Shown: positions 278 to 52,746, numbered from the stretch's first letter. The stretch: 64,000 nt of DNA from Proteromonas lacertae (GCA_002245135.1 NGBS01000001.1:186001-250000); one strand, 5' to 3'. Notes: generated by a model from the letters alone, not told the origin. Translations and numbers: made by a program.

Positions 278-3200
278 ATGGTTTTATCTGCAAAACCCCT
301 TTGGAAAGCAATATATGATGATTTAGTTGCTATACTGTGTTACTTTATTGAATATATTATATAGATATCATCCTATTCTTTCTGATTGTCGAAAGAACAT
401 TCTTTGTTCTCCTGTCCTAAAGTCAATATTAGGTCAGGTGCATTTAATCATTGAGTATTTATAATAATTCAGTATATTATAGTAAAATAATTACAGATGA
501 GAATAATTTGAATAGTTTATTGAAAAAAGAAGGATTTCTAGATGAATTAATGTATAATCAAATGCATGAATGGTTAAATCAAATCAATAATTTAATAAAT
601 TCACTAATTCAACCTACAGATTATGAAATTTTATTTGATTGTACTAAAAAGTTAATGAAGAGAATTGAAGCTGCATTTACTGATAATAGTTCAGAATCAT
701 TGTGTTTGGTTATATATGCATGTTGTAAAACGTAAGAAATAGCATGTTTATCTTATATTCATAGTTTATTCTCTTTCTTTCAAACAATAACTGATGAAAA
801 AATGTTATTAGCTTTATCAACTGTATACACTACAACAACACCCTTTCCAAATTGGTTAAATCGATTAGAAACTTCATTATTTCCAGATTGTGAAGATAAT
901 ATAAATGAATTGAGAAAAATAATTCATGAAATCTATTTCTTTATCAATCAACAACCTTATAAGTTATATGAATCAATTCCATTGAATTATTTCTCATCAG
1001 ATTTTGATGAAACAATGACTATTATTGATACTGTCGTATAATTATTATATTTTTGGTATAGGAAACAATAATGCGTTATTATTTAGATGAAGAACCAGAA
1101 AAAGGACAAAAATGGATAGAATTAGTCCAGAATTATATTACTCAACTAGAAAATTTCGAAAAGAGTTATGTAAAACCACCCAAAGATACTTCGTTTTCTA
1201 TTGATACATTAATAGAATATTTCAATAAAAGAGAGAAAATGGAATATGATTTAGTAGATCCAGTCGTAAAGAGTAATTTATTAAAAGGAATAGGAATGTC
1301 AACATTTATTGATTTGTCTGATAGAATATCCTTTTTATTATTATTATTATTATATTCATTTAGTATATATTTAATTCTGCTTGTAAGTTAGATTCCATCC
1401 TAATTGCTTAGAAACATTTAAACTATTACATTCAATGAAAATTACACCTCATATAATCAGTGTAAATTGGGCTAAGAATTGTATTAAAGTTCCATTAGAA
1501 AGAAGAAATATCACAGACTTCATTGTTTCATCCTGTGATTTGTTATTTGATAAAGAAAATCTTTCAACAGGAGATATTACTAAAGATATGTTGAGTGGTA
1601 TTGATAAAGTAAGAGAAATGAATAAGTATTGAATATATTCAATAACATTATTATTGTATAGAGTATTGGATAAAAACAAACCTGGTTTGTCAGTGTACAT
1701 TGGTGATGGATCGACTGATGTTTTACCTGCATTAGAAACTGATATTGGAATAATCATCTACAAATCTGAAAATCCTAGTATAATCAGTTTTTGTAATGAT
1801 TTTCATATTGAATTAAAACCATTATACAACTGTAATAGAGACAATATAAAGAAGGATAGTAATAAACCAGTATTGTATTATGTACATTCGTGGTCTGAAA
1901 TTGGTTGGTTTTTATTTGGATCAAAGTACAGTCAATATATTCAAGGTTATGAATGGATATACAATATTCCAAGAATGTTAATCATTGCTGGAAGTGATAG
2001 TGGAGGTGGCGCTGGTATTGAAGCTGATATTAAAACTTCAAGTGCATTAGGTGTATTTAGTAGTTGCTGTTTAGCTGCATTAACATCTCAAAATACTGAA
2101 GGAGTTCAAGGTATATTTACAGTACCAAAAGAGACTGTTGAAAGTCAATTGAATTCTATTCTTAGTGATATAGGTACAAATACAGTAAAAACAGGGATGT
2201 TAGGTGATATTGCATCTATTAAAGCAATTGGTAAGATGATGTTTAAATATAATATCACTAATTTAGTTATTGATCCTGTAATGGTTTCTACAAGTGGAGA
2301 TGTGTTATTACAGAAAGAATGTGTTGAAACAATTAAAGAATGTTTAGTTAGAAAAGCTTTGATTATTACTCCAAACATATATGAAGCTGGAATAATGTTA
2401 AATCGAACAGTTAATAGAAAGCTTAATGATATTAAGAAAGCTGCAGTTGAATTGCATAAACTTGGCCCAAAGTATGTTTTAGTTAAAGGAGGACATATAT
2501 CTTTTTTTATTTTTTGCTGTTGTGTTATTTTAGAGATTGTTTTTTATTATTGTAATTAGAAGATGGTAAAATGCTACTGATGTTTTATATGATGGAAATA
2601 CAATCAGATTATACACTCATCCATTTATTAATACAAATCATACTCATGGCACAGGATGTACATTAGGAAGTGCAATTGCTAGTGAAATAGCCAAAGGATA
2701 TGATGTTCCACAAGCTGTACAAAACGCAAAGAATTATATTTCTAGACTTATTGAAGAGAGTCAATATCTTCGAATTGGATTTGGCAAACAAAATCCAATG
2801 TTACATTGTATGAACAATTGTGATTGGTTATATCGTGTTATACCAAAAAGATCAATTGATTTGAGTTTATATGCTGTAATGGATCCTGATATGGATAAGA
2901 AGTGGAATAGAAAAGCATCTGAATCAGCTGAAGCAGCAATATTAGGAGGTGCAACTGTGATTCAAATGAGAGCAAAAGAATTATCAACTAATATCCTTTC
3001 TTTGTATGCTCTTTTATAGAATAATAGTGAGTTTAATTTATTGTTTTAAAGGAGTTTATAGATAATGCTTTAGAAGTTCAAAAGGTTTGTAAGAAATATA
3101 ACATTCCTTTTTTAATAAATGATAGAGTTGATATTGCAATGGCTATTAATGCCGATGGAATTCACATTGGTCAATCTGATATGCCATTGAGTTATGCTAG

Positions 3201-3596
3201 AAAATTAGTGGGAAGTTCAATGATTATTGGTGTAACAGCTGGAACAAAAGCAACTGCAATAGAAGCTGATATGAATGGTGCTGATTATATTGGAACAAAT
3301 GCAATATTTCCAACAGCGTATAAGCTCTGTTATTGTTATTATTATAATACTTAAATAGAACAAAAGAAGATAGTCCAGTGATGGGAATTGATACTTTGGA
3401 AGAAATATGTAAGAGTGTAACAATTCCAATAGTAGCAATTGGAGGTATTAAAAAGACCAATGCAGTGGAAGTTATGAAGAGTGGAGTTAATGGAATTGCT
3501 GTAGTTTCAGCATTATTTGATCAACCAGATGTGAAAGTAGCAACAGAAGAATTGAAAGAAATTGTTGAAAGATTTAAGAAAGAAAAAGAGAATTAA
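278..3596 (+). CDS. Multifunctional thiamine enzyme: TenA-like + HAD phosphatase + ThiD (HMP/HMP-P kinase) + ThiE (thiamine-phosphate synthase)
   Basis: Spliced model with 6 GT-AG and 3 AT-initiated introns. Motifs: ILYHP (TenA-like N-terminus); DFDETMT, ISVNW, GDGSTD (HAD, as in plant TH2); IAGSDSGGGAGIEADIKT, VKTGML, DPVM, KGGH, THGTGCTL (ThiD); INDRVDIA, DGIHIGQSD, GADYIG, VAIGGI (ThiE). The junction near 2555-2572 is ambiguous. Confidence 0.88.
1326..1386 (+). other. U12-like intron, AT-AA, 61 nt
   Basis: AGA|ATATCCTTT...TTTAAT-11nt ending TTGTAA|GTT AGA TTC. Removal joins SDR to VRFHPNCLETF in frame. Confidence 0.8.
2497..2555 (+). other. U12-like intron, AT-AA, 59 nt (alternative 3' end at 2569, also AA)
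   Basis: KGGH CAT|ATATCTTTT...TTGTAA|TTA GAA GAT GGT restores KGGHL but needs one extra base in the following A-run. Splicing to GGTAA| at 2569 is in frame but deletes the linker. Confidence 0.65.
2991..3049 (+). other. U12-like intron, AT-AA, 59 nt
   Basis: ACT A|ATATCCTTT...TTTAAT-12nt ending TTTTAA|AG GAG TTT gives ELSTKEF, matching the ThiE ST(R/K)EF stretch. Confidence 0.8.
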
Positions 3597-3699
3597 TAAT
3601 AGAAGATTCTTATATTTGTTTTTGTTGAATTATTTATTTGAATGAAAAATAAGAAAGAAAAATGAAGAATATATAAAATATATTTTAGTTTTTATAGAA

Positions 3700-5353
3700 T
3701 TATTTCTTATATAAGAATGCCAATCCAGCAATACCAGCAAACATTAGAATAACCAAACCACCAAATATAATCAACCAAACTTGACCATCCATATCTATAT
3801 ATATATAATAATTATAGTAACATTATACTATTCTTAATAATAGAAGCTACATTAATGCTACTATCAAGTGATCCAGTTACTAAACATCCTCTAAATGATA
3901 AGTTATCATCTTTTGGGAATAAAACTCCACAGGTAGCTGGTAAATCATGAGCTTCTTCTCTTACAATATTCTCTGATAATTCTTTATTATAAATTCCAAC
4001 ACTTCCATTATTTGTACCAATTCCAATGAAGTTCATTTCAGGACTAATATATAATATAATATATATATATACTTTACAACGACAGTTGTAATAGATTTAT
4101 TACTTGGTGCTTCTCTTGATAATATATAATCAACAGTTGGATTATTTATATCATCCCTAAAGTTCAAATTATACTATTTAATAAAATAATTAATGAAATA
4201 ATATTATACACAAACAATATATCCTTTCCTCGCAGATGTATAGGAACATACCAACTCATTCTCTGATAAAAATTTCCCTTTCTTTAATATTGTCTTTATT
4301 GGAGTATTACTATCATCAACTTCAATATGAGGTGGTTCTAACACTAACGTAGTTGCTAAATTCTTTGATCTTAAGTTTATTAATTCACAATAACCATCTT
4401 CATATATTACGCTTAAATATTCATAGGATGGATTGAAGGACATATCTTTTACTGAGCTTTGTCTATGGTTGATTTCTCGTATATATTTTAAACTATATCT
4501 ATATCTATCAATAGGTTTAGCTTCTTCTACTTCTTCTTCTTCTGCATTTTCTTCATTTTTTGGTTTTTCTTCTTCTTGCACTTCTTCCTTTTTACCTTTC
4601 TTTGATTTCTTACTCTTTTTATCTTTATTGTTATTCTGTTGCTGTTGTTGTTGTTGTTGTTCGTTATTTGGACTATCTGTATCTATTTTTTCTTTTTGAA
4701 TTGACCATAGTTTTATTGTACCATCACTTAATCCAGTTGCTATGATACTATTATCATTGGAAAAACAACTGATTTTTTGCTCAATTTTAGAATTTTCTGC
4801 TACTGTTGCTTGTTCACAATCAATTGACATACTATTCATTTATAAGTTGCAAAAATAGTGTAGTCATACTATAATAAGTCATCTTTAACACTAATTGAAC
4901 AAATATGAATCTTACTTTTAGATGATAATGCAATCAATGAACCCTATTAAATTTATAATTACAGCCAATTAAAATACATCTTGAGAAGCACTTACATTAG
5001 AAATATATAGATTTTCTGTATCACAATGTATTAAAGTTTGCATTTCTAAACATTCTGATTCATCATCTCTCCATAAAGAAATTACTCTCTATTATAAATT
5101 AAATAATTATTGCTATACAACAAAATTTTTGATTCCAGTCTTTGCAGCACCTCCACCACAGCTCAAACAAATAAGATCTCTGTCGCCTATAATATATTTG
5201 GATTAAAATACCAACAATATCTAGAATTGTCTCATTTGGATGCAAAATTGTCATTGATGTAACTGGACTAGGCACACCAATTCTGTTGTATCCACCATCA
5301 GTAATAGACGATTCATTTTTTTGAACTGGCTTTTTTTCAGCTTCAGAAGACAT
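3700..5353 (-). CDS. SEC12: Sec12/PREB-like WD40 guanine-nucleotide exchange factor for Sar1
   Basis: After splicing 7 GT-AG introns: CGGGAAKTGIKN signature, WD40 repeats, AHDLPAT...TGSLD last blade, C-terminal transmembrane helix, internal poly-Q/acidic insert. Confidence 0.8.
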
Positions 5354-5409
5354 TCAAACTTATTTAAAACGAGTGAAACGGATATATAATAATTGCATTT
5401 CAGTCTTTA

Positions 5410-6231
5410 ATGTCAACTGTAGTAACAGGTATAGTTAACAAAATTTATATTATAGATCCTATCGCCTTGACTGTAGCTGGTGTTGTTGTAACAGCTTGTT
5501 CTTACCTATTTTGGAAATACACAACTTCAAAAACTGAAGCTAGTATTTTGAATATAGCTGATGAATTTGTTGCACCTAAAAAAGTTAAACCAACCATTAG
5601 TGCAGAAGAGAGAGAAAGAATTGCCAGAGAAAGAGAAGAAGCTGAAGCTGAATTACAAGAAAGAATTAAAGCTGCTAAAGAACAAGATAAGGCTATTAAG
5701 AACCAACAACAAGAGGAGTTAAAGCAATACAAAATTCTTGCTGCTGAAGAGAATAGAAGAGTAGCTGAGATAAAAAGAAGAAAGGAAATGAACAAGAAGC
5801 TTGAAGAACAAAGACAAAGAGAAGCTTCCGAAAAGAAAATCCAACAACAATTAGCTGAAAGATTAGCTAAACAAGAAGCTGAAAGAAAACGAAAAGAAGA
5901 TTATCAAAAAAGAAAGGAGCAACAAGCTAAGGAACGTGCTGAAAGAGAGCAAAGAAAGAAGGAAAGAGAACAACAACGTATTGAAAGAGAAGAGCAAAGA
6001 AAGATAAAACAAGCTGAATATGAAGCTCGTCAAGAAGAAAAGAAGAAGAGATTTGAAGAAAGACAAAAACAAAGAGAAGAAAGAGAAAAAGCTAAGAGAG
6101 AACAGAATGAAACATCAAACAATGATTCTTCTGAAAATACCCAAGAAACTGAACAACCTAAACAAGAAGAAGAGCAACAACAACAAAATGAAGTTACTGA
6201 ACCAGTAGCTGTTGAAAATACTACAGACTAA
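5410..6231 (+). CDS. N-terminally membrane-anchored charged coiled-coil protein
   Basis: Hydrophobic IALTVAGVVVTACSYLFW then an E/K/R/Q-rich helix. Probable in-frame 27-nt intron at 5429-5455. Confidence 0.7.
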   Translation: MSTVVTGIVNKIYIIDPIALTVAGVVVTACSYLFWKYTTSKTEASILNIADEFVAPKKVKPTISAEERERIAREREEAEAELQERIKAAKEQDKAIKNQQQEELKQYKILAAEENRRVAEIKRRKEMNKKLEEQRQREASEKKIQQQLAERLAKQEAERKRKEDYQKRKEQQAKERAEREQRKKEREQQRIEREEQRKIKQAEYEARQEEKKKRFEERQKQREEREKAKREQNETSNNDSSENTQETEQPKQEEEQQQQNEVTEPVAVENTTD

Positions 6232-6346
6232 ACAAATTTTGATGTAATTATAATAATGTTATGTGTACAAATCACAAAAGATAAAAATGCGTTATTTTAA
6301 ATCTGTAAGTATTATTTTAATGTAGTTGTAGTTGTTATTATTATAA

Positions 6347-9063
6347 CTAATCACTAAGTTCATCATCATCAACGCTTTTGCTATTATTAGAAATAACTGC
6401 TTGACTTTTATATAGATCAGCGATTTGTTGAGAGGATGTTGCATTTTCTGGCTTCTTATCATCTCTGGTTCTTATAAATCGAGGAAATCTCAACGCAATT
6501 CCTTTTTCTTTATCAACTAAACCAGTTGCTGCTTTATGAATAGGACTAATAGACAAATCAGCAGCTTTTATTTCCCATACAACTTTAGTGTCAAACCATT
6601 TATCTGGTAATAATGAATCATCATAAATATAATTCTCTCCAGGATTATCAATTACATGTTTTTGCATTTCAGTACCTAATACTTTAAGATCATCATCAGA
6701 AAATCCAGTTCCAATCTAATCATATAATAATATACAAATAACAAAAAAATAAAATACTTTACAGATTGATTGATATTCATCATTATCTGGATCATAACAA
6801 GCTAATAAGTAAGCTCCATATACTCCTGTTCTTTTACCTCTACCATCATAAGCTCCAATTGGAACTAAATCAATGGAATCACCAATCTTATCCATATAAT
6901 CTTTCTTCAATTTCAACCAATTCAAAGATCTTTTTGATGGTTCATATTGAGCATTTTCGTATAATGTTTTTACCATTAAACCTTCACAACTATTCTTTAC
7001 AGATTCGTTCAAGAAATCAAGCATGTCATCTGTATTATCACACTATTAATTATAAAATACATAATAGTAATTAATATTTATACTTCTTTATGTGTAGCAA
7101 ACATCAATTTACCTTCAACTGGTTTGAAATGTTCATGTAACATATTTCTTCTTTTATCAAAAGATTCTTTCAATAAACTTTCTCCATTAAAATACAATAA
7201 ATCAAATGCCATTATTATAACTTGAACTGTTATATTCTCAGTAGAAACATCTTTTCTTGCTCTTGTTGATAGTATTTGAAATGGTAATAATTGCTTCTTT
7301 ACTCTATCCCAAGCTACAACTTCACTATCAATAACGAATGATTTTATCTCAGGAGATACATTAGTCTTTAAAAATTCTATTAAATCAGGATATTTACCAG
7401 TTTGATTCTCAGAATTACGAGAGAAGATTCTATACTCTCCATTTTCAGTTTTATGAATTTGAGCTCTTTCTCCATCGTATTTATATTCACAAGTAAACTT
7501 AATACCATTAAATCTATCTAATACTTCTGTAATTCCTTTGGTTGGTTTAGCCAACATAGGCTTGATTGGTATTCCTGGAGTTAAACAACACTGTTCTAAT
7601 AAATGATCAATTCCTGATTCTAATAATAATGGAATAATCTTATCAAATGTTGGCATTTCATTATATGCTTGTTTGACTATTTCTTCACATTCTTCTTTGG
7701 ATATTTTCTTATTGTCATTCATTGATTTCTTATACATTGCATCTCCTAATGAAATTAATACAGACTGCAAAGCCAAACCAATTCTAAGTTTGCCTTGTAA
7801 AGCTCTTACTATATACCTGCTTTCACATTCTCTACTAGCAACTAATAACTTTTGTATATAACCAACTTTTTTATCTACACTATTCTGACCTGATGATATT
7901 GCTATGTTTTTGAATTCTTTAAACACATTTCTTACAGTTAAAGGTGCTGGAGCAAAAAGCATTCTTTGTGTTGTTTTACTACTTTCAGCTACAACTCCTA
8001 AATCACCTGAGTCTTTATAATTATTTTCAATTGTATCTTTTGTACTTCCTGTCGCTTGGGCTATTGATTTAATAATGTATGAATCTCCAATTCCTAATTC
8101 AACACCATCAAATGCTGGAGCTACTTGATTACAACATAAATAAACAGATGGTAATAAATCTTCAGGTGTCTTTTCAATTACTTTATAGAAAAAATTACTT
8201 AAATATTGTTGTATTTGTAATCTTTTTGTTGTTTTTTCCATTTTTTCAAATGTATGTGATAATGAGAGATATGGAACTCTATTCAATAATTATTATTGTA
8301 TTATATATATATACGGTTCATTCTTTTTCCAACTATATTTCTTTTCTTCTTCATCATCATATTCAATATCATTATTATCACCTTTATCTTTTAACACATC
8401 ATTTATTGTTTTAGTTGTTTTACTCTTTTTTGTCTTTTTAGTTTTTATTTCTTCTTCTTCTTCTTCTTCCATCTTCAATGATGAAGTTTCTTTTTCTTCC
8501 TCTTCTTCTTTTTTATCTTTTTCTGCATCTGAATCTGATAAATCTTCCATTTCATCATCTTCTTTCTTTGTTTCTTCTACTTTCTTTTCTTTTTTAGATG
8601 ATTTATCTTTTCTAGGTGTTTGTTTTTTAGGAGTTTTCTCTTTCTTAGGTGATTTTGATGTTCTTGGTTTCTTCTTTTCAGGGATTTCTTTTATTTCTGA
8701 TTCTGTATTTGAATGACTAAAAAAATAATCTATTAATAATACTTCTGCCTTTTCATTGGTATAATTTCTTCATCATCACTATCTTCTAGTTCATATTCTT
8801 TGTCTTTAGGTACTTTTGGTCTATCTACCGTTTTTACTATTTTTACTTTCTCTTTCACTTCTTCTACTTTTTTAACTTCTTCTTGTTCTTTTATAAAATT
8901 CTTTTCATTATTTTCTGTTGCAGCAGGCGAACTGACAGGTTTAAAGAAAGATCTACAATGTAAACTCTTTATTAATCATACGATAATGATGCTTGGCCTA
9001 TGATCTTTGTGTTATCTACAATGTGATATTACAATGGCAATTTATACTCTGTTTCTTTGGCAT
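6347..9063 (-). CDS. LIG1: DNA ligase I
   Basis: [12 protein letters not shown] (motif I), [22 protein letters not shown]-terminal PIP-box-like QASLSSFF; 6 GT-AG introns. Confidence 0.96.
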
Positions 9064-9239: not shown

Positions 9240-9587
9240 ATGGTATGAATTATAAATATCTTTTCAATTTCATTATATTCTATATTATAGTATGATTTAT
9301 TAAACCCAACATATGCCGAGGAATGTAGAAGACACAAGTTAAAGAGATTAGTACAAAGCCCTAATAGTTACTTTATGGATGTAAAATGCCAAGGATGCTT
9401 TGAAATGTATTTGATCTATTTTTTATTCGATTAGCACAACAGTATTCAGTCATGCTCAAACTGTTGTTGTATGCAAAGGGTATAACATTTTATTTTTAAT
9501 CTAATTAGTTGCAACACAATTTTATGCACACCAACAGGAGGAAAAGTAAAGTTAAGTGAAAACTGTTCATTCAGAAAGAAAAATTAA
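9240..9587 (+). CDS. RPS27: 40S ribosomal protein S27 (eS27)
   Basis: After 3 introns: DLLNP...[23 protein letters not shown]...[15 protein letters not shown]...LCTPTGGK. Confidence 0.96.
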
Positions 9588-9707
9588 ATAATTTTAATTT
9601 TATCATTGTAAAGGGGCTTTAATAATGTTTTTCTTTGGATTAGTTTTTTTACAGCTCATTAATCACAAAAATCTAAACAAAAAAATAAAACATAATAGTT
9701 GTGGTTA

Positions 9708-11341
9708 TTAATTCGGAGAGTATTTCAACATCTTCATTGATGTTTTCGCTAATATATCTGAGATAAACTGAAGAGTGTCACAATCAAGATCATTTATCAT
9801 ATTATACTTATCAGATGATAATATGATTGGAAAACCAAGATTACTGTTCAAAATTTCTAATCCTTCTTCTGTATTACCATACTTAGCAAGTAATTTCCCA
9901 GTATTATAAAACATAACATATTCATTTTTCATTACTATTGGTAATAGAAATGATCTAATATATTTATGAACAGCTTCTCTCTCTTCAATGTTTTTATCAT
10001 CTTTCCTTATTACTAACCAATCATTACTCTCATAAATCTCTTCACTGCATTTAGATCTATAGTTGAATATATGATTTTTTAACTCATTCATTACATCTGT
10101 TGTTATTTCATTATTCTTCTTTAAACTGTCTTTTGTAGTTTTAAGTAATTTGTTCCATTCATCAAATATATCACTTAACTCGAAAAATATCTTTATATCA
10201 TAATAATCATTAAAATCATATTGAATATCTTCAGATGTAAATTCTTCTTCTTTAACTTCATTCACCAATTCTTCAGTAATAAAACCATAAAAGTCTTTTG
10301 CTTTTGATAAATTTAAATCTAACAAAAACAATCTAACATAAGAAACTAGACCAACAAAATAATCAGGTCTTGATTCTTTATTATCATTAAACCATCCTAA
10401 CAAATTGTAAAAAGAAATTAAAAAAACTAAAACAATGAAATAAATCTATAATATTATATAAAAAAAAGATATAGATGGATCAATAGCTTTATCTGCATTG
10501 ATATTAATATTCACTTTCTTAGTAAGTAATTCTTTTAACCTTGTATCTATTTCTCTATCTAGTATATCCCTTAACACATATTCAGCTGCATTACCAAAGT
10601 ATCTTAAGAAACTTGTATATATTTGGTTTTTCATGTCTTGACTTATATCATTATTTTGGGTATAAGTATATAAATATTCTTTTAATACATCATCTCTTTC
10701 TTCAAAGGTTAAACATGAGATATAATAAGCTGTAAAATCATGCTATTTATAATATAAAACAATATATATATATACCAATTGTAGACTGAATAAATAATAG
10801 AAATAATTCTTTATAATATTGTTAAACTTCTCTTCATCCAATATTTCACTGAATAAACAAAGTCTTTCTTTTTGATTTTCATTCTCAGAATCACTATTAT
10901 TGTCATTATTATTAGATGATTCATTCTGCATATTCTTCATTCTTATCATTATATAAAAGTGAGTAACAAAACCAATATATTTCTCATTCACTGTATCATC
11001 ATCATTTACTGCTAATTCATATAATTTATCATACAATTCTGTATATTGTTCATTATAAATATATCTTTGAATCTCATGAAAAGTTGATTCTTTGTTATAA
11101 TCTTCATATTTATTCTGATATTGTGATAAATAACTATTAATATCATCTTGATATAATTTAATATTATCAAAATATTCATTAAAATGACTTCTACTTTCAC
11201 ATGATTGGCTTATTTGTGTTTGCAAGCTTTTCATTAATTCATATTCTAGTTTAACTCTTTTATCAACCCATTCAATATCTTCCCATGTCTTTATATAAGG
11301 ACTTTGTAATAGAATATCAACAGAATTACTTACACTATTTC

Positions 11342-11377
<36 letters not shown>

Positions 11378-36617: not shown

Positions 36618-39290
36618 CTATATCTCTTCTTCTGTTTCTTCTTTCTCAGTCTTTGATTCATCTGCGGTATTTACTTCATCTTTTTTCTCCTCTCCTCCTT
36701 CTTTTTCTTTTTCTTTTTCTCCATCTTTTTCTTCTTTTGATTCACCATTATCATTAGCTTGTGGTTCTTCAGAATAAATATCATTAGTTTTCCTGGGAAT
36801 AATTGGTCCACCTCCATATTGTGTATATAAGAAATCCCATACATCCTTATTAATTGACTTATAATGTCTAAATGATTCTAAATGTTTTTTAATATTACCT
36901 TCTTCATCAAATAAACATGAATTATCAATAGCATCAGGCACTTTTCCTGCATTAAATATAAAATCAGTCCATTGTCTACTCCATTTCATTGAAATAACGT
37001 ATATACTGGTGGATTTGATAGAATCATATTTTTGAACCATCGTTTCTTCATACTGTCTTCTTTTCTGAAGTGTTGTTAATTCATTCATACATATTTCACA
37101 TATTCTCTTTTCCTAATTATTATAAAAATAAAATAAATAAATATATTATATTATATTATACTTTAATTAATCTATCAGATCCAAATGTTGCTATACATTC
37201 ATTATATAATTCATCTGATAATTCAATATAGTGTTTTGAACTAATTGGCATATCTGCTCTAATATAACCATGTCTAATAAAAATAAAATAATAAAATAAT
37301 AATAATACTCACAACAAATATCTCCATTATCAACATTAGGAACATATGTCAAATTCTTCATTAAAAACCACCAATACTTTGATATTACATTCTTATGAGT
37401 TATTTTATCATCACTTATTTCTTTTTCATATTTTTCTAGTATATTTGATACTTTTGTATTATCTGATGGTGGATTTAGTTTATATAAAGCAACATAACAT
37501 TGCACTTTGTTTATTTCTTTCTCACTCACTTTAGTAACACTATGATCATTATATAACCACCAAATATTATCAGTATCTCGACAATAACAGATATAATGTC
37601 CTCCACCCATTGTACCAATGTGTGTTATTATTGCTACACATGAATACACAGTTTGTGTATATATTTCACTAGATTCTGGACTGAGGAAAGGTCTCATATC
37701 TAAATCGTCAAATGGCAATGTTATATGTGTTGCAATCTATTAAGTTATATTATAAGTAATACTTTTGAATTGAATAATCTACCAACTTCAAATCTTTTCA
37801 GATTTAATATTAATATTTGTGGTAATATTTCAATTGATTCCATTCTCTTAGCTTCTTGTTTTTCTTTACATATCTCACAATAGTATTTATTATCACCATT
37901 AAGACAATTTGGATGATTATAACTTTCTTTTCTATTTTAAAAATAAGAATAAATAAATAAATAAATTATACAAACAATCAATCAATGGAATTGGTGTAGC
38001 AGTTCCAATCATTCTATTAAACGAATGCCAAGCTCCACTTATTATATTACCATCTTCTTTGATTGGTATTTGAATTGTTAATTCCAAAAATGGTGATACT
38101 GAATATGTTGTTGTTTTACAATTATCACAAGTAATTGTTTGTGCAATATATCCTTCAAATATATCACTTATTATATTATGATGACTATTAAAACAATGAA
38201 TCTTTTTATCAATCCATTCTTTTAATTCTTCATCACTTTTTATTGATCTATAACTTTCATCATTTCTATTACCATAGATATATAATAATAAAATATATAT
38301 ATATACCTTTTATCTATTGTTGTAGCGTCAATCATATTATTTAATAATGCTTGTAAACATTCAGATGCATCTTGTTGTCCAGCTCCATCAAAATATGTAT
38401 TTAGTTTGACAAAACTTGATAATATTGAATTTGGTTTAAAACATTGTACTTTTCCTTCTGAAACTACTTTTACTGTTTGAATAAAGGATTTCAATAATGA
38501 ATATTCTTTTAATTTATTATCTATTAATAATAAAAATTATATTATTAATATACAATCGGTATTAGACAATACAATCGATAAATTGTCATAGAAATACGAT
38601 GTTAATATATCACAGTGGCAAAGTGATTGTATAACTGAATTGAAGAAGCAAGTATTACCTAAATTGAAGAATCCAACTTTAAATGGAGATAATGGAGATG
38701 AATCAGTTGATGTTGATGGTATAGGAGCTTTTTCTTGGTTGAATTCTGGTGATCTTACATAAAACAAACTATATTGGATGTATGGAACAGGAAAATTCTA
38801 TTAATTAATCATAATATAATATAAAATACACAAGTGACTGGATAGTCCAGAAGATCTTTATCACATTTGAAACATTTTATTGATTTTGATGATATATTTG
38901 CATATACACAGTACCAAAACAATTAAATAAACTAAATCTAAAATGTTAATATGAAAAGGATATGTGAGAATATTGAATATGTTTTTCAATACACTCATTC
39001 TTGTCACAGAAAATAGAATAACAGTCAGGCTATTATATCTAATATACGATAATACTGATAAACAAATCCAAAAGTTATTGAGCAAATCTTCATTACAACT
39101 GAAACACTTTACTGGTGATTCTCCTGTTTTAAGCTAAATATAATAAATAATATTATACTATTAATTTACTCTTAATATAAATTGAAATGTGATAATTCAA
39201 CCTTGAGAGAGAATCTTCATCAATTTCAATATGGTTACATTGACCATCTATATTTAAATCATTTTCATTCTCATCTTTTGTTTCTGACAT
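36618..39290 (-). CDS. Ubiquitin-specific protease, USP20/33-like (zf-UBP, USP, two DUSP-like domains)
   Basis: GFFNLGNTCFFNSVIQ, QQDASE, LKRF, HIG...GHY, W.LYND; N-terminal Cys/His zf-UBP; C-terminal W.FLY..YGGGP; 9 GT-AG introns plus 1 AT-AC intron. Confidence 0.88.
38911..38963 (-). other. U12-type intron, AT-AC, 53 nt
   Basis: Minus strand CAC|ATATCCTTTT...TATTTAAT TGTTTTGGTAC|TGT GTA TAT gives HCVYANISSKSIKCFKCD with the expected zf-UBP H-to-CxxC spacing. Confidence 0.88.
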
Positions 39291-40998: not shown

Positions 40999-43900
40999 AT
41001 GTTTCAAACAAATGTAGTGTTGCTGCTACTAGTTTTACAATTATGTAATACAATGCACATATATAGACCTTGGATTCCAGAAGAAGTGGATTGGTGTTTG
41101 AGAGTACATGGTATATATTTTTATCAATCATTTAAAAAATAAATAGACCCACTTTGGCCTTTCAGTTATGAAAAGAATATAGGACAGGTTTTTGAACATA
41201 AAGGTAGAGAAACTAATAATAGTCAAAATCTAGGTGTTTATTGTAATGCAACACAAGCTCTAAGGATATGTCACATTTGTGAGGATTTCAATACAACTGA
41301 TAGTGAAGGTTATTTATCAAACTATACTTCACATATGCAAATTCAAGGGTGCAAATTGGACATTATTAAACAAAAATATACCAGTAGCCTTTGATACACC
41401 ATATGTTGCAGGAGGAACTCACAAAAATGATTATGGAAGAGATGATAAATTTGTATGTGTAATACAAGATTACTCCTGTCTTGATCCAACACAAAGTCCT
41501 GCTAAATACTATTCATCTGATGTTTGTTCGATTAGATGTTGGGGCGAAAATGAAGGAAAACCATTTCCAGTATCACCACATCCATCTGAAAAGGAATTAC
41601 CATTTCCAACGGAACAATGGGAATATAATAAACGTAAAACAGCTCAAGGATTTATAGATACATTAGCTGGTACAGGTGTAAGAGGTTATAAAGATGGATT
41701 TAGAAATGAATCTCAATTTAACCTTCCCAAAGGAGTTACAGTTGGTTTAAATAATGATGTATATGTAGCTGATACAGGAAATCATTGTATTAGATTAATA
41801 AGAGAAGATAATGTTTCAACTGTTATTGGTAAATGTGGAACAGCTGGATTTGCTGATGGTGGTATTGATGAAGCTCTATTTAGTTCACCCACAGGAATTG
41901 ATTTTTATTATGAAACAAGGACAAATAATAATGGAGATGAATATGAAATAGTGTATTTAATTGTAGCTGATACAAATAATCACAAAATTAGAAAAGTATA
42001 TAAAGATGGTAATAAATATATTGCTACAACTTTGAGTGGTACAAGAAATATAACAACTGAAACAAATGAAAGAAAAACACCTCAATATGGTTTTAGTGAT
42101 GGTGATCGAGATCATGCAAGATTTTCATACCCCCAAGATGTAGCAGTTACACCTGATGGTGTTGTGTATGTTGCTGATACATTGAATTATGCAATTAGAA
42201 TGATAACTGCCTGATGGTAATACAACAACAATTGCTGGACATAGAATAATAGCCTCTAACATTCCTGGTTGTCCAGAACCATGTGAAAGAGTATTAATAT
42301 AATTAATTATTATATTTTTTATTTATAGTTTCAACAAGGATTTAAAGATGGTAGTACTGAAGAAAGTGAATTCTATTATCCAATTGGTATTTCACTTGGT
42401 CCAAATAACACAATATTAGTTACAGACCAAAATAGAATAAGAATGATAACTCCAAAAGAAGTAATGTCTACAGTTCAGAATATAACAAGTTACAATAGAG
42501 TAGTAACTTTAGCAGGTAATGATGAAGTAGGAGAAAGGGATGGAAGAGGAGAGTTAGCAACATTTCAAAACCCCAAAGGTATAATGATGGCAGGTGATGG
42601 TTCAATATATGTAGCTGATGGAAGTTGTAGGATAAGAAGATTGAGATCAGAACATGATGTTGCATTAGAGATAAAGAAAGATATGAAATTCAATTATTTA
42701 GTTAGACCATCTGGTTGCATGAGTAGAGATTTTCCAATAGATAGAACAAATTACAGATTAACACCACATATTGGTCATATTGAGTATAGTAATTATTCAT
42801 TAATTGGTTTATTGAATTTACCATGTGTTGGTGTTCCTACTGATTATGATTTTGTTACTACAAATTATACTTTAACCAATAACAGAGGTGGTACTGGATA
42901 TGGACCAAATTATAATATGTCTGATTTAGATATTGGAACTTCGTATAGAATAAGATGCCCTGAAAGTGATTATAGTGGATTTGTGGTAAAATGTAATGGT
43001 AGTTTATGTTCAGATAATAGTTATGTATGTCAATCCGCAAGGAAAGTCGTTGGAATAACAAATGATAATCTTTACAAACTAATAGTTAGAGAAGGTGCTG
43101 AAATAGAAGGAATGTTTTATACAAGGACATTTTCAATTGAAGCGATAGATGAACATATTGTAGAGACACATACATTAGCTGGTATTCCTACATCACCATT
43201 AGATGATGGATGTGGATATTTAGATAATATACCAGCCACAAAAGGAAGATTAAGTTTAGCTTATGATTTAGCTATGCTTTATAATACAACCTTAACAAAC
43301 GAGAATTACATGTATATCGCTGATACAGAGAATAATGTTATTAGATATATGACTGCTACTTGCACATTTGTATGTGAAAACAATGGTACTTGTGATGGTC
43401 CTGATCATTGTAGTTGTACAACTGGTTGGACTGGTTATGATTGTTCAATTCCAGAAGAAAAATCAGATTTAGATTGTGGTCCAGGGTATGTAAAAGTAAA
43501 TGATGATCCAATTCAATGTGAAGCAACTTGTGTGCAAGATTGTGGTTTACATGGTAAATGTACATTACCTGATACTTGTACATGTGATGAAGGTTGGTAT
43601 GATGCTAATTGTACAACACCAGTTTGTCTCCAGACATGTGGTAATGGTGGTAATTGTACTGCTAATAATACATGTACTTGTCCTCAATGGTGGACTGGTG
43701 ATGATTGTAGAACACCTGTTTGTACTCAAGATTGTAATCATGGTATTTGTATTGCACCAAATACTTGTATGTGTAATCATGAATGGAGTGGCTATGATTG
43801 TTCTAAACCAATATGTCATCAAGGATATTTAGTACCTTATGATGATGATGATGAAGAGAATGTTAAGTATTGGCCTACTTTTGTTCCATGTAATTATAGT

Positions 43901-46900
43901 GAATGGTGTAATGATACTTCTATGTTTGATTGTCAACAGAGAATAAGAGAACAATCGCCATTAGTACCAGCTGGAGCATTTGAGAGAAATATTACTGGAT
44001 TTAAAGAATTACCAACTGGTTGTTTCAGATTAGAATTTAATTTATCAGATCCCTATCCATTGCGTTATTTTAAATATGAAATTAGTTTAAATAATTTCAC
44101 TAATAATATGATACATCAAGGTAATACTCCATTCCCTGATTTATATCCTGAATATCCAGATATAGCAGACTCTGATAGACAAGTTGCACTAGTTGAATTA
44201 AAAAACATGACACAAGGCTATTATGTTTGTGCAAATGGTGGAACATGTTACAATCCTGAACAATGTGATTGTACAAGAGATTGGGTTGGTTTTGATTGTA
44301 GAACTCCTGTATGCAGACCAAGTTATTTTGAAGAAGGAAATGATGAAGAAGAATACAAACTATTAACCACAGTTCAAGGTTATCCGCGTTGGCAACACAA
44401 TGATATGGTTAAACAAGGTGAATATAGATGTTCAATAAGAGCAATGACAGAATTTGAGCATTATTGGTGTTATTCTCCTAGGAATTGTTCAGATTATATA
44501 TGGAATTATCCTACTTATTATAGTCATTATATGGATTGTCCTAATGGAACTATTGTTGTAGATGGTGAAGCAATTAATGATGATTGTGAGAATGAGAATT
44601 ATTGGACTAATAAATGGCCTAATTCTCCTTATGGTTGGCCTGCTGTTCATATATCTTTTTTATTTTTATTATTATTATTTCTTTATATTTTCTTTAATTC
44701 TTATTTTTTTACATTAGATCACCTGAAAATCCGGATCTTGACACTAATGAAGGTTATTTGAAGAGACAAACATGGAAAACATCAGGAGAAAGATGGAGAA
44801 AAGGTAATAGTTGTACTGTTCTATATCACAGAGTTTGTAAAAAGTATAAATTATTTAATAATATATATAGTGATACTGGCAAAGTAGAGAGATTATACAA
44901 TGAAACAATATATTATGAAAATGACAATCTAACAATAATCAATACGAATATCACATTCAGACCAGTCATAGAAGATCGTCATAATACTAATGATACATTT
45001 TTAAATAGAACATATGGTAGATGGTTTGAAGATGGTGGTGAATGTATAGATGAAGTAATAGGTGGATGTTGGAATAATGGAACATGTGTATCACCAGGTA
45101 TGTATATATATATAATATTATCTATTATAATTGATTAGATGTTTGTGTTTGTGCTGAAGGTTGGACTGGTAAAGACTGTAGAGAACCAATTTGTAATAAT
45201 ACTTGTGTTAATGGTGTTTGTACTTATCCCAATGAATGTACATGTAATCGTGGATGGGAAGGCCCAGATTGTGATATTCCAATATGTGCACAGAATTGTA
45301 CAGGACCTGATACTAACAATGAAACTGATCCTTTATCACATGGAAGATGTGTTGGACCTGATTTATGTGAATGTAAAAAATGGAATTCTACCATATTTGA
45401 TAATAGAAGGTTTTGGGGATATGTAGATGGTAAACCATTTTATAGAGATAATTATAATAATTCACAATTAACAGGATGGACTGGATATGATTGTAGTACT
45501 CCTATTTGTGTTCAAGCTGAAAAGTTTGTGTTTAATAAACCTTATGGTAAATATGCAGTTGGTTTTAATCAGTCAATATTACATGGACATGAACCGCAGA
45601 ATAACATTGATGGAGAAGAGGAATATCCTTATTATCCATTGCCTGTTGCAGATTATACAGGTGAGTATTGTAGAAATGATGGTAGTTGTTATCAAACTGG
45701 TTGTTTATACGGATGGAATTCAACGTGTAATGTAACACTATGGGAAGCTGGTAATTATCCTAACAGAAGTGGAGTTGTTAATTACTATAATTATACATGG
45801 TTAGATTGGGAAAATTGGGATGTTGGTGTTGCTGAACCAGGTGAAGGTATTTATGTATGTTATAATTATGGCTCTTGTGTTGCACCTGATACTTGCAGTT
45901 GTCAAGATGGTTGGGAAGGATTTAATTGTTCTATACCTCAATGTAGACACAGACAACCAGATAGTGGTGAAATAGTAGGATGTTTAAATGGTGGTATTTG
46001 TAGTGATAGAGATAACTGTACATGTATGCAAACTCCTTCATTATTATATGATAAATATCCAGAGTTATCGTGGAAGAATCCAGGTTTTATTACTGGTTGG
46101 AATGGTAGTGATTGTTCAATGCCTATGTGTGTTCAAGGATGGTATGATGTTAATTGTACTGAACCTGGAATTAGTGATGCTGGTGAAGGATGTTATAGAT
46201 GTCCAAATATATCATTTTTTTGTTTTGATTTTTGATTATTTTCTTTAATTTTATGTTTTTTGTAAGGTGGTTTATGTACTGCTCCAGATTATTGTTCTTG
46301 TCCTCCAGAATGGACTGGTTATGATTGTAGAAAACCAGTTTGTAGTGTTCCAGTTACAGGAAATTTATTATATCAATTGCACACAGAACAAATAGAGAAA
46401 ATAATAGAATTTGAAAATGATCCATGTGGTGAAAATGATGAAATCATGTTTAATGGAGTTAATACTCATCGAGGTAATTGTACTGCACCAGGAAGATGCC
46501 AGTGTTTATGTAAAGAAAGAGGTACTCCCTTCAAAGATTTTGGACTTAGAAGATTCCAAGGTTATAGTACAGTATATGGTCGTGAAGATTGTAGAGATGG
46601 ATATGAAGGTGAATATAGTGAAGATGATGAATATTTTGTTTCATGTCATTTACAGATTTATGTACCTACAACTGCTGAAAGATATACTGTTCTAATTATA
46701 TTAGTGTGTTTTGCTGCTGTTATAATTTTGTTTGCTTTATGGTGGTGTATTTCATCAACTTGGAGAAGATATAAATTGGTTAAGATGGTTGAAGATAGAA
46801 GAGTTAAAAAGAATGTCAATGTTGCGAAAAAATTGGCAGATGAAGAAATACAAGAACAAAATACTGAAAAGAAGAAGAGAGATGAAACTATGAAAAGGAA

Positions 46901-46949
46901 ATATGAGTATGATCAGTTATTGGCTTTAAAAAATAAAAATTTATATTAA
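40999..46949 (+). CDS. Large type-I membrane protein: signal peptide, NHL repeats, LCCL-like segment, many EGF-like repeats, TM helix, short tail
   Basis: YVADTGNHCIR-type NHL repeats; repeated C.NGG.C..P..C.C..GWTG.DC..P.C; TM VLIILVCFAAVIILFALWWCI; about 4 GT-AG and 2 AT introns; frame changes near 41345 and 42209. Confidence 0.85.
44651..44712 (+). other. U12-type intron, AT-AC, 62 nt
   Basis: CAT|ATATCTTTT...TTCTTTAAT...TTTTTAC|ATT AGA TCA joins ORF 42443 to the frame of ORF 44758. Confidence 0.85.
46209..46265 (+). other. U12-like intron, AT-AA, 57 nt
   Basis: AAT|ATATCATTTT...TTCTTTAAT...TTGTAA|GGT GGT restores the EGF motif CPNGGLCTAPDYC. Confidence 0.85.
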
Positions 46950-47006
46950 CTTATTACTTTATTATAATTATATATATTTTTAGTTCTATTAACAATAAAT
47001 ACTATT

Positions 47007-47348
47007 CTAAGTAAATTCACTTTCATCTTCTGATGTTTTTGTTACTATTTCTAGCAATTTACAAATCTTTGTGTGTTTCTTTTCTTTTGCAAGTGAGTAT
47101 GCTGTACAATCTCCATCAATCCTTATATTTGGATTAGCTCCATATTCTAGCAGCAATTTAACAGAATCAAATTTACCATGATACGATGCCAACATCAATG
47201 CAGTTAATCCAGAAGCTGGTTCTATTTGATTTATCCAAAACTCTCGAAACTTTGTATCTTTTAATATCACTTTTAGGGCAGATATATTACCATCTGCTGA
47301 TGCTATATAGAAGTTTGAAGCATCCTTTTTAATTCTAATTCTACTCAT
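47007..47348 (-). CDS. Small ankyrin-repeat protein
   Basis: GLTALMLASYHGKFDSVKLLLEYGANPN. Start placed at MSRIRIKK because the upstream ORF extension overlaps the opposite gene. Confidence 0.85.
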   Translation of the reverse strand: MSRIRIKKDASNFYIASADGNISALKVILKDTKFREFWINQIEPASGLTALMLASYHGKFDSVKLLLEYGANPNIRIDGDCTAYSLAKEKKHTKICKLLEIVTKTSEDESEFT

Positions 47349-47398
47349 AATTTCAAAAACATATTTTGGCTCGAAAAAGTTTGATTGGCGGTTTAAGA

Positions 47399-47948
47399 AT
47401 GGATGATGATGATGACTTGTTAGACATAGAAAAAGATATATTAGGCGATGCAGATATACATGAATCACAAAATTTACCTCCACCAAACAAATCTGCTACT
47501 GCAATTGTAACCAGTCATGGAACGTATCTGAATGGGTTTACTCCAGCTAAGTCACCATTTGAAAGAGTTGATACAACAAACATTGAAGTTGTTCAACCGC
47601 CAATTGCACAACAAGAGGATATACCTCTTATTCAATATAAGAAACGAGTAATAATTGTTATTTATTAATAATATAATATAGAAAACAGAAAATTATTATT
47701 CAAAAGATCCTCCTTTATCTTCACCTCAAAGATTAATATCAAATACACTAACTCAGACAAGATCACCACTTCCGCCGACACCTTCACAGTCTATAAGAAA
47801 CACTCATTTATCTCAAATATCACCAATACAACCATCATCTCTGTCATCAACTAATACTCCAATTTCACCTCATTTTCAAATTATATCATCAACTCCACCG
47901 TCTTTACCATTAACACAACAACATCATCAACAGCAATATAGTCAGAAA

Positions 47949-47987
<39 letters not shown>

Positions 47988-48721: not shown

Positions 48722-48812
48722 TTGTTTATTTTTTTTATAATTATAATGATGTTAAATTTGCAGTAAACTCTCATAACAAACAACAATATACCAAAATTAA
48801 GAGATTAATCAT

Positions 48813-49109
48813 TTATTCTTCTTTTTGCTTTCCTGATTTTTTGTCTTTCTTCTTTTCACTTTCTTCATAGTTGGTTTTCTTCTCTGGAGCTTCAGACTTT
48901 TCTTCATTTTCTTCGGTACTAGGAGTTTTCTTGATGAATAAACCACCTATATCTACAATTACTGATTCTACAACAGCTACTAAGAAAACAACTATAGCTA
49001 AAGCAACTATCAGATTACTGTGTTTCTTTAAGTATGTAAGATTTGGATATAGTTTTAGGCCTTTAATAAAAGAAGGTATATCACTTATAATAGCATTTAC
49101 TCCACTCAT
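48813..49109 (-). CDS. Small single-pass membrane protein of unknown function
   Basis: 98-aa ORF with LIVALAIVVFLVAVV and a charged tail, filling the gap between two genes. Confidence 0.6.
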   Translation of the reverse strand: MSGVNAIISDIPSFIKGLKLYPNLTYLKKHSNLIVALAIVVFLVAVVESVIVDIGGLFIKKTPSTEENEEKSEAPEKKTNYEESEKKKDKKSGKQKEE

Positions 49110-49282
49110 TTAATACAATAACTATAAAAAAAGAAAATGTCGATTGTAACGATTGTTGTAGTATTCGATTGTTTATCATATGTATTAAATAACAATGGAA
49201 GAATATAAAATATATTTGGACAATTGCTTATGTTTTAGTATTCTTAACATAAAAAAAAGGAATAAAAAAACATAATTATCAT

Positions 49283-52200
49283 TTAATCGATGGTTTTATT
49301 ACATATTGGACATGTCTTCAATTGAGATTTCAAAAGTTCATAGCAGTTTAAACACATACAAGCATGACCACACACATTAAATCTTATCTATTCATATATT
49401 ATAATAACAAATTCATTATATACTTGTGTTTTATTGGCTTGACAAAAAATACATATAGGAGTGACAGATGGTTCAACATAAGTGTTATTATAGCCATATT
49501 TATTAGTATTATACCATGACGGATGGTTACAATCTATAAATAGTATATATATATATATATATAATACACTCAGGAGGTAAAGGAAAACTTTGTTGTTGTT
49601 TATCATTAAATGCACTTTCATTTGGATTATCATATTTTATCTGTAAAGGTATTGAATCTTTGTTTAATTCATTTAATAAACCTCCACTACTACCACTTTC
49701 TTCTTTTACTTCATCAACTTCATCTTCATCTTCTGGTGAGGAAGTTGTTGTTGTATTTGTTGTGGTTGTTGCTGTTGTTGGTATTGGTGATGATGATGAG
49801 ATTGTGAATGGTAAATCAGGTGTTAGTGGTTTTTCATTAGATTCATCATCATTCTCTTCTTCTAATATAATTCTTTTGATTGTTTCTTGTGAAGAACTAT
49901 CATTTGCTTCTATTATAGTTGATGTCATTGTTGTTGGTGGTGGTGTTGCTGTAGTAAAAGCTGTTGTTGTTGTTAATGATATTGGAATAGATGGTGTTGA
50001 TGGTTGTGAATGAGATGATGACGATGAAGAAGTATGTTTGTTGGAATTATTATAACTTGTCTTTTTATCAATACTTTTTCTATCTCTAGATTTTATATCA
50101 TTCTTTACTGGAATTGATGCTGATGTTGATGTTATTGGTTTATCATCATTAATAATCGATATTGGTTGTCTAGATAACATCGATATCTTCTCCTTTATCT
50201 CATTCATTGATTCTTTTTCTTTTTGGCCTAATTGTTCAGCAAATTCATTCTGTTTTCTTATTTTCTCTTTAAACTTCTTTGCATCTTCTAATAATTTCTG
50301 TTCAAGTAATTTTTGACTTTCTATTTTCTTTCTTCTGTTTTCTTCTTGACGTTTCTTCTTTTCCAACTATAACGTAAAATATAATAAATATATACCAATT
50401 CTTCTTCACTTATTTCATGATTCTCTTTCACTTTCTTTATTGAAGATGATGAATTGATTCTCTTTTTATTCATTTTGTTTTCTTTAGTGTTATTATCTTT
50501 TGACTTATTATCAACTTTTTCAATTGTTGTTGTTGTTGTATTGTCATTCGTTTGATTAGTTTCTTTACTATTATTATTACTAGCAGTGTTAGTATTATTA
50601 TTATTATTATTATCTAAATCATTCGAGTCAGATCTATTCAAAACTCTATTGTTAATATGATGTGGAGGTATAAACGTAGAATGTTGTTTCATAAACTTCC
50701 TCGGTCTTTTTCTTCGAGTATTGCTACTAGCAGGATTTGAATCAACCTGTGATGTTGATAATTGTTTAAAACTTCTTGATTTATATCCAACTATATAATA
50801 ATATAATAATATATATACATATAGGTTTACTTAATTTAAACATTATAGGATCAATATTATAGATTAAGCAACATACTATGATTTGACTGCTGATAATAAT
50901 ACAATACAACTTCACATGGTATTCATCAAATTCAATATTAATCGAATCTTTATAATTTGATACAATCTCATTCAATATGTAATTAAATGGTATTACATAA
51001 ATATTTAATTTACAAAAACAATATATCATCATTACAATAAGTGCAATTTCAGAGAACTAATAAAATAAAATAAAAACATAATATATATACATGTATCTGA
51101 TGGTAACACAGTTGAATATAAAAATTATACAACATACAAAACAACTTTGAAGTTAAGAAATCTCTAATCATATTCATCACACTAACATCTCCTAACTTGA
51201 TCACTCCAATGATTGAATATTCATAATACATAACTAATGAGATTAACAACAACTTCATTAACATTATCTTCCAACTTGTTGCACCTGAAAACAACGATGA
51301 TAATCTATTTAAAGTATTATTATGTTAATATATATATATACAGATTTGGTACATATGAATTAATAAGATAAAACATCAATACAAATGGTCTTGCTACATA
51401 TGATATAATACTGGGAATATCAAAATTCACAGAAAAACATATAAACTCTATAATAAAAGGTGATATTGTCTTAAAGTGTATAAAATCCTTCCACTGATGA
51501 TAATTATCTGAATCTTTCATGAATTGTATCACTAATAAATAATAATAATATATATATATATACATGATTCTGATATTAAATACAATCTAAATAATAGAAA
51601 TGTAATAATAATTATTTGGATTGGTAAATAATATATAAACAATGAAGTTATCTATTAATAAAACAATAAAATAAAAAATAAAAAGAAAATACAGGAAAAC
51701 TAATTTTCAACACCCATACTAGACTTTCAAATACGATACTACTTCCCAGAAACAATATATTTATAGATCCGTTACATAATAAATATATATATGGACATAA
51801 CCGTATTATTGTAATATATATACAACTATAAGTTACAAATTCACAATATAAATGATCAGTAACAGAGTATAATATAACACAAGCAAACCATATAGAGAGA
51901 AACAGTGTAAAAAAATGTAAATACACTTGCTGTATAATCGTCGTAATACATATACCAATTAAATATAGGAAATTATGTTGGTGCAAGTAATATAGTATTG
52001 AGTAGTAATGGAATTTACGTTCTGTCTCATATGCCACTTCGTAATAACTGATTATATTTATTATACATGATAATTTCTCAATCTATATAAATATTATAAT
52101 TATTATACATTTTCTGTGGGAAGTTTGTCAATGTTATAAATATTATTAAAGTTATCTCTGTAATAATTTAAATATGGATTGTATGACCGAATTGACTTAC

Positions 52201-52746
52201 AATACTATTAGAGAATAACTAAATATAATGTTTATATAAAAAAAAGGATATTCAAGAAACAGACCTTTTGACTTATCAAGCAGTGATTCAGGTGATTCCA
52301 TCAAGATTCTGTTTTGTTCCACTATTATATTCTTCACCCAAAGATCTATTTCTTCATTCACACCTAGGATGTAACTATCTTCTTCTTCTTCTCTTTCTTT
52401 TAAATAATTAAGATACACAGACAACATTTCACGATCGACACTACTATTTATACATAAATTTTTATATCATTTGTATTTATACTCTCGAAATTCACCTCTT
52501 GTGCCTATTATCACAAATATTAAAAAAATAAAGGGAACACTACAACACAGCCATTCAGGTATAATACTTAAAGTAGCACTCATGCTGTTGAATTTTTCTA
52601 TATTTTGAATAAATTGAATAACTATAATTATGGATACTTTCACTTTCTTTACGATTATCCGGTTCACAATTACATAAAACAGGCATAATTACCAATATAA
52701 AAAGCAATGAAAAGATAAATGAGCGAAATCTCTCCCTCATTTTCAT
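49283..52746 (-). CDS. Multi-pass membrane protein with C-terminal C3HC4 RING finger (putative E3 ligase)
   Basis: About 12 introns splice the short ORFs into one frame: signal peptide, many TM segments, charged and S/T-rich linker, CIFC...CGHACMCLNC...CPIC. Confidence 0.72.
52197..52251 (-). other. U12-like intron, AT-AA, 55 nt
   Basis: Minus strand GA|ATATCCTTTT...TTCTCTAAT AGTATTGTAA|G TCA ATT CGG gives LESIRSYNPYL, in frame with the next exon. Confidence 0.8.

Follow-up and report, generated by a model that had tools for sequence, protein, structure and literature searches.

Short introns with AT-AA and AT-AC ends, likely of the U12 class, in a gene-dense stretch of the Proteromonas lacertae genome

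In a 64,000-nucleotide (nt) stretch of Proteromonas lacertae DNA (GCA_002245135.1, NGBS01000001.1:186001-250000), called the window below and numbered from its first base, eight AT-rich inserts of 53-66 nt were found in five genes spread over 51 kb. All of them start with ATATC(C/T/A)TTT; five end in TAA and three in TAC. They behave like introns of the A-type U12 class, and the likely picture is a minor-intron expansion with an unusual end rule. We consider it quite probable that the inserts are U12 introns of the A type, that the minor splicing system is expanded here, and that AA commonly, and probably regularly, serves as its 3' end. These AT introns are known here from genomic DNA and protein matches alone. 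A previous reading of the same DNA (the sequence-only reading) had listed eight such donors, and each was found again where it had been placed. Three features are new relative to that reading: a TAG that ends 20-23 nt short of the 3' end in six of the eight introns, phase 0 in six of the eight, and the occurrence of three of the introns in one thiamine gene.

Results

The extended 5' splice site of A-type U12 introns, RTATCCTT, is read by the minor spliceosome. This type of site is present in exact form in four of the eight introns, where the donor is ATATCCTT (1326 and 2991 on the plus strand, 38963 and 52251 on the minus strand). The donor is ATATCTTT in three others (2497, 44651 and, on the minus strand, 10472) and ATATCATT in the last (46209). 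In the order 1326, 2497, 2991, 10472, 38963, 44651, 46209 and 52251, the inserts measure 61, 59, 59, 66, 53, 62, 57 and 55 nt. The 3' strings are TTGTAA in four introns, TTTTAA in one, TTTTAC in two and TGGTAC in one, so that our recount gives the same five TAA ends (four as TTGTAA) and three TAC ends as the earlier one.

A semi-Markov gene model was trained on the long exons of the window, with any 3' dinucleotide permitted after an ATATC(C/T/A)TT donor. The model used exactly these eight AT donors out of the 57 such 8-mers on both strands, 15 of which lie in the sense orientation within modelled genes. With the 3' ends left free, AA was chosen at 1326, 2991 and 46209, and different ends were chosen at the other five. 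The model also called 111 GT-AG introns; after 9 were removed as antisense shadows or frameshift absorbers, 102 were retained, a count that is a model estimate from DNA. The sequence-only reading had put the GT-AG introns at about 110-115.

The two classes are distinct in length and donor. The 102 GT-AG introns have a median length of 33 nt, with 97 of them in the range of 25-45 nt; 98 end in TAG and 96 start with GTAT. The AT introns are longer (Mann-Whitney p=3e-6), and the contrast of 53-66 nt with 25-45 nt drawn earlier is borne out. C occupies position +5 in all eight AT donors, followed by a T run at +7 to +9, as against 2 of the 102 GT-AG donors, which read GTAT(A/T/G). The possibility of U2-type AT-AC introns was rejected on this ground, because the major donors carry A, T or G at +5 and all eight AT donors carry C and then the T run. 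The AT introns make up 8 of 110 introns, or 7.3% (95% confidence interval (CI) 3.2-13.8%), and 6.5% with the earlier intron count, so the share of about 6-7% given before holds within the window.

A relaxed scan of the modelled genes yielded no additional AT intron, nor any GT-AG intron whose donor is convincingly of the U12 type; the sole doubtful case is at 29693 on the minus strand. There, in a gene for a kinase with leucine-rich repeats (29626-29693, minus strand), a GT intron starts with GTATCTTTC, and the model divided it into a pair of introns separated by one base. No other intron is a candidate for a GT-AG intron of the minor type. A donor-like motif, ATATCTTTT, also occurs at 9256 on the plus strand, within the GT-AG intron (9243-9290) that comes first in a small gene resembling RPS27, and is possibly a competing minor donor or possibly a chance match.

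The 3' ends were examined by listing, at each site, all frame-preserving removals from the AT donor together with all nearby GT-AG, GC-AG and AT-AC pairs. The candidates were scored against profiles of 28 thiamine-fusion homologues and 24 homologues of the epidermal growth factor (EGF)-repeat protein. The ends given above came first in four of the five profile tests (1326, 2991, 44651 and 46209), and the AA ends were best at three of the five AA sites. An in-frame AC at the true donor is absent for all five AA introns. AT-AN termini whose exact removal restores the protein, another mark of the A-type class, were thus found as the profile-best choice at those four sites, while the ends at 10472, 38963 and 52251 rest on frame and motif only.

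Three AT introns lie in a gene on the plus strand (278..3596; the 5' end of the model is uncertain) that encodes a thiamine biosynthesis fusion of HAD-like, ThiD and ThiE parts. In its HAD-like part, the phase 0 AT-AA intron at 1326..1386 has the top-scoring end of 37 open-frame candidates, with 37.7 bits compared with 28.7 for the next and 22.6 for the best GT-AG pair, and the alignment shows no insertion in the window row. In ThiE, the phase 1 AT-AA intron at 2991..3049 ranks first of 39 candidates (123.8 bits; next 117.8); its junction is gap-free against all 28 homologues, and the Pfam TMP-TENI matches run from 1 to 37 and then from 39 to 127. The phase 0 intron of the ThiD part is less simple, as it may be 59 nt long (2497..2555) with a one-base frameshift near 2570, or 73 nt long (to 2569). 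Both candidate lengths end in AA, and there is no in-frame GT-AG or GC-AG removal. With the 59-nt end, the residue conserved behind KGGH is present and the loop has its normal length, but the extra one-base frameshift 15 nt downstream is required. The 73-nt AT-AA removal is the sole frame-intact end that scores well, and all 28 homologues have a longer loop than it would leave. Two features speak for 59 nt: the homologues have at least seven loop residues, and the TAG motif described below sits 22 nt from that end.

Two further AT introns, both of phase 0, lie in a gene for a protein with NHL and EGF repeats (41053..47014, plus strand), whose model contains two +1 frameshifts. The AT-AA intron at 46209..46265 has the best end of 32 candidates (156.6 vs 146.8 bits), and 24 of 24 homologues are gap-free across the junction. 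The AT-AC intron at 44651..44712 is first of 35 candidates only narrowly (39.2 vs 37.8 bits), in a region that is variable among the homologues. Judged by these profiles, removal of exactly AT...AA is needed for a normal protein at three sites, 1326, 2991 and 46209.

The remaining three introns are all on the minus strand. The phase 0 AT-AC intron of the Nup107 gene (10407..10472) ends at the only in-frame AC for its donor, and the exon downstream of it matches PF04121; PDB searches with the Nup107 exons gave nothing usable. An AG end also exists 27 nt into this intron. Another phase 0 AT-AC intron (38911..38963) interrupts the gene of a UCH-DUSP ubiquitin hydrolase, in the part that encodes its N-terminal zinc finger. 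It likewise ends at the only in-frame AC, has no GT-AG alternative and is followed by the UCH and DUSP matches; the short exons gave no Pfam match, and the His-to-Cys spacing fits zf-UBP. Lastly, a phase 2 AT-AA intron (52197..52251) lies in a gene without family assignment. Removal up to the AA puts the reading frame right as far as the GT-AG intron that follows, and neither of the two AG ends closest by is in frame.

Segments of 25 nt of the form GT...AAG were noticed in the 3' half of two AT-AA introns (1363-1387 and 3027-3051, both on the plus strand), ending 1-2 bases past the AA. The first of them is in frame, and an alternative product with a 12-residue insertion could be made.

Relatives of the window were available as independent assemblies, in which genomic reading frames run into the introns. 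Read-through of the 2497 donor, as I-S-F right after KGGH, is seen in 11 of 11 proteins from two clusters of relatives (representatives 83% and 87% identical), and read-through of the 46209 donor in four of four members of a 90% cluster. In the latter, P0275 and P0426 are two alleles of one relative that have 21 read-through residues in common, after which their frames differ. On the assumption that both alleles have a common 3' sequence and exon start, codon enumeration leaves a single consistent offset (two extra T) and an intron end GCTTGT(A/G)A, for an intron of 73 or 75 nt. Since both alleles decode to a terminal A, AC and AG are excluded at 46209 in the relative, and the miscalled terminal AA that the sequence-only reading had raised as a danger is argued against. 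In the metagenome scans no relative of the EGF exon was found, and none of 80 ligase loci exceeded 53% identity.

A motif T(T/C)TAAT ends 10-16 nt before the 3' end in seven of the eight AT introns and in three of the 102 GT-AG introns (Fisher p=3e-8), and none of 20,000 shuffles of the intron interiors attained seven occurrences. The motif had been described before as (TTC)T(T/C)TAAT in seven introns; the core is confirmed in that number, and the full TTCT(T/C)TAAT is present in only three (44651, 46209 and 52251), the other four being T/A-rich variants. A composite pattern, designed post hoc with the data already seen, gave nine matches at seven sites where 0.93 were expected. In addition, the TAG 20-23 nt before the 3' end of six AT introns ends 32-46 nt past the donor, which is the usual length of a major intron. 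Only one of 50,000 shuffles placed six TAGs in any 4-nt window, a figure uncorrected for the choice of trinucleotide. The two introns without the TAG have the fullest branch motif and the longest branch-to-end distances, 14 and 16 nt.

Two other explanations were rejected. Two-step splicing through the internal TAG would leave a piece without a usable donor, and by inspection the frames do not sum. Conversion of a major intron by a shift of its 3' site 21 nt into the exon does not fit either, as no residues are missing at 1326 or 2991.

The AA ends each bypass an AG one to four bases downstream. From the stereotyped ends, the TAG at a fixed distance in six of eight introns and the neglect of nearby AGs, the choice of 3' end points to a rule that is shifted but specific. 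For the same reasons the relaxed 3' selection proposed by the sequence-only reading is possibly the wrong picture.

Rarity and a bias away from phase 0 are typical of minor introns, though they do not define them, and neither is seen here, with about 7% of introns and six of eight in phase 0. The latter proportion differs from the 22% typical of minor introns (p=0.002) and from the 39% of the major introns here (p=0.045). The thiamine fusion gene with its three AT introns is patchily distributed, and its best full-length matches are green-algal TenA-HAD-ThiD-ThiE proteins. A check for introners found no repeat across the junctions by eye and no near-identical copies; six of the 28 intron pairs scored above shuffled sequences (p<=0.03), perhaps owing to common 3' motifs and low complexity.

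Discussion

We propose that U11 and U6atac would read the ATATCYTTT donor, and that U12 would pair with a T-shifted branch, TYTAAT, as with the TTTGA of Physarum. The 3' site would then be set by the distance from the branch together with a short (T)TKTAM end and not by AG, which would let AGs one to four bases away be skipped. The 5' A would tolerate A or C as the last intron base, as in the AT-AN class, and AC ends may have drifted to AA under the AT pressure of a genome with 28% GC. The last base of minor introns can vary, splicing of the AT-AN class in human cells needing CENATAC (PMC8280824), and the minor-intron branch lies about 8-30 nt from the 3' end (PMC1557818). Many of the AT introns would have been gained within the lineage, which is likely because six of eight are in phase 0 and three lie in one patchily distributed gene.

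Several points weigh against this interpretation. Four donors differ from ATATCCTT, and a canonical CCTTRAC or TTCCTTRAC branch is in none of the eight introns. In the relative at 46209, the apparent branch appears to lie 23-25 nt from the end, beyond the range of 10-16 nt. The 2497 intron requires one more frameshift or a short loop, and for it a more distant cluster of relatives (P0248 and P0274), with a GT-type read-through upstream in ThiD, is uninformative. The exact end at 10472 is not pinned by homologues; at 52251 no homologue pins the end and the ESM Atlas gave no family. An Rfam scan of the window gave no match at gathering scores, no minor small nuclear RNA (snRNA) and one chance-level match to a small nucleolar RNA, and no minor-specific protein was found in the window. 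At least seven other one-base frameshifts occur on the plus strand in genes that are intact apart from them, all of which look like an extra base (~21825, ~22375 and ~22680 in exportin-1, ~26067, ~40468, ~41348 and ~42210); the other hosts are the genes of a cyclic-nucleotide (cNMP)-binding protein, an Hsp70-like protein and, with two, the EGF-repeat protein. The seven +1 frameshifts are most likely residual assembly insertions. Moreover, eight introns in five genes of one flagged window can overstate the density, and the placement of the taxon depends on one gene and a fast tree that includes an MMETSP row.

The main rival concerns the scale and not the mechanism. The introns may be real U12 introns of which the window holds a lucky cluster, the genome-wide share being 1-2% as in Blastocystis and AC being more frequent than AA. 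Five of the eight introns lie in two genes of a window flagged for looking unusual, the intervals are wide (density 3.2-13.8%, AA share 24-91%), and a 7.5 kb dynein exon and several other genes have no AT introns. However, 8 of 110 would be improbable at a rate of 1% (p=1.4e-5, assuming independent introns), the introns are in five separate genes over 51 kb, and even the three best-pinned AA ends out of eight exceed the plant rate of 2.96% (p=0.001). We regard such a cluster as rather unlikely. For the AA share itself, AT-AA is the commonest terminus in the window, as the sequence-only reading had it (5/8), and the interval of 24-91% does not carry that rank to the whole genome.

Secondly, the major spliceosome, or an altered machinery of hybrid kind, might remove the AT introns in place of a standard minor spliceosome. 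GTAT, found in 96 of the 102 major donors, and ATAT differ by a single base. In six of the eight introns the internal TAG is placed like the 3' site of a major intron (32-46 nt past the donor and 20-23 nt from the end), and the canonical U12 branch is lacking. Against this, the C at +5 and the T run at +7 to +9 fit a U12 donor, with the C in only 2 of 102 major introns. The AT introns are also a separate length class with a motif that is rare in major introns (3/102), and the likely relative Blastocystis retains the full minor machinery. We consider this explanation improbable.

Less probable still, and only a slight possibility, is the use of nested or flanking GT-AG sites that leave short hydrophobic insertions or deletions in the proteins. 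In-frame options exist at 1326 (the 25-nt GTATA...AAG in its 3' part), 46209, 2991, 10472 and 52251. Nevertheless, wherever there is a profile they score about 11-16 bits or more below the AT-AA removals (22.6 vs 37.7, 112.9 vs 123.8 and 143.3 vs 156.6), there is no option at 2497 or 38963, and the relatives keep the AT donor and not the GT-AG sites. The least probable explanation is that the assembly shows AA in error where the genome has AC or AG. Single-base frameshifts do occur, at about one in every 7-8 kb of coding DNA, and at three AA ends the next base is G, where a lost G would hide an AG. But that rate is too low for five hits at eight 3' ends, the other seven frameshifts are all extra bases, which cannot make the AA pattern because an extra A at the end would break the frame, and the independently assembled relative decodes to a terminal A at 46209.

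Three known systems come closest. A-type U12 introns of animals and plants likewise have the ATATCCTT donor, a branch-like motif near the 3' end and a variable last base, AT-AA being the commonest non-canonical minor end (PMC10639083). In those genomes, however, minor introns are below about 0.5% and mostly GT-AG, whereas those of the window are about 7%, all A-type, with the branch TYTAAT. Physarum polycephalum is alike in its high share of minor introns (20,899 of 175,198, or about 12% by our own arithmetic) and in its tolerance of AT-AA. Its branch is likewise shifted towards T (TTTGA) and lies 9-12 nt before the 3' end, and its donors take the form ATATCYTT, with ATATCTTT among them. It differs in that its minor introns are mostly GT-AG; AT-AA makes up 27% of 1,014 non-canonical cases, about 1% of minor introns, and 26% are in phase 0 (bioRxiv 2020.10.12.336362). 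Physarum is also an amoebozoan, and any expansion here would therefore be independent of it.

Blastocystis is a probable relative. The ligase tree, a fast tree from one gene with 99 rows, groups the window and three relatives (76-91% identity) with Blastocystis hominis, a gut-metagenome row and an MMETSP row (96 SH-like), a grouping that we grade as weak. Blastocystis possesses all four minor snRNAs along with seven minor proteins, and 346 of its 35,412 introns, about 1%, are of the U12 type (PMC5608401), and the minor introns of its subtype ST1 are 77% AT-AC and 49% phase 0 (PMC10639083). These introns resemble those of the window in being short, mostly A-type, rich in phase 0 and suspected of recent gain. 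The differences are the share of about 1%, a median of 39 nt, no mention of AT-AA in the available portions of these sources, and the axonemal-type dynein heavy chain and CFAP69 encoded in the window. Because of these two genes, the organism is flagellated and is not Blastocystis, in which flagellar genes are lost (PMC12129017).

A broader claim would be that this is the second independent large minor-intron expansion after Physarum (several percent, mostly new and in phase 0) and the first AT-AA-dominated genome, with a changed 3' code made up of the TAG about 21 nt upstream, the TYTAAT branch, to which U12 would have co-evolved, and TTGTAA as the end, AGs close by being passed over. We put it forward tentatively, as a serious possibility that falls somewhat short of probable. 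After Blastocystis, the next densest figure outside Amoebozoa in the literature consulted is 0.554%, for Basidiobolus, and a survey of >3,000 genomes found little de novo creation of minor introns outside Physarum (PMC10639083); Proteromonas and Opalina are absent from the supplement of that survey. In the literature searched, which mostly did not extend to subscription papers, including the Proteromonas genome paper, there was no report of Proteromonas minor introns or of an AT-AA-dominated genome.

If a second high-density lineage exists, two questions would become testable: the way in which minor introns arise, and the choice of a 3' site by the minor spliceosome where neither AG nor AC marks it. 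Comparison with Blastocystis, a near relative with about 1%, could then trace the gain and the AC-to-AA drift position by position. There is also a practical side, since standard annotation pipelines drop AT-AA junctions; two of the larger genes here would be broken in automatic gene sets, and the AT-AA class would stay invisible to intron classifiers.

Other features of the window

Mammalian NUP107 is among the genes that contain a minor intron, and the AT-AC intron of Nup107 may therefore be old. A relative's ligase and ThiD proteins (P0002 and P0246, corresponding to 1000-8300 of the window) both have 11,253 bases as the length of their longest contig, which suggests that gene order is kept. 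The window as a whole has 28.4% GC and is gene-dense, with short introns. The dynein heavy chain gene (56476-64000, plus strand) contains at least 7.5 kb of coding sequence without an intron, compared with about two introns per kb elsewhere in the genome.

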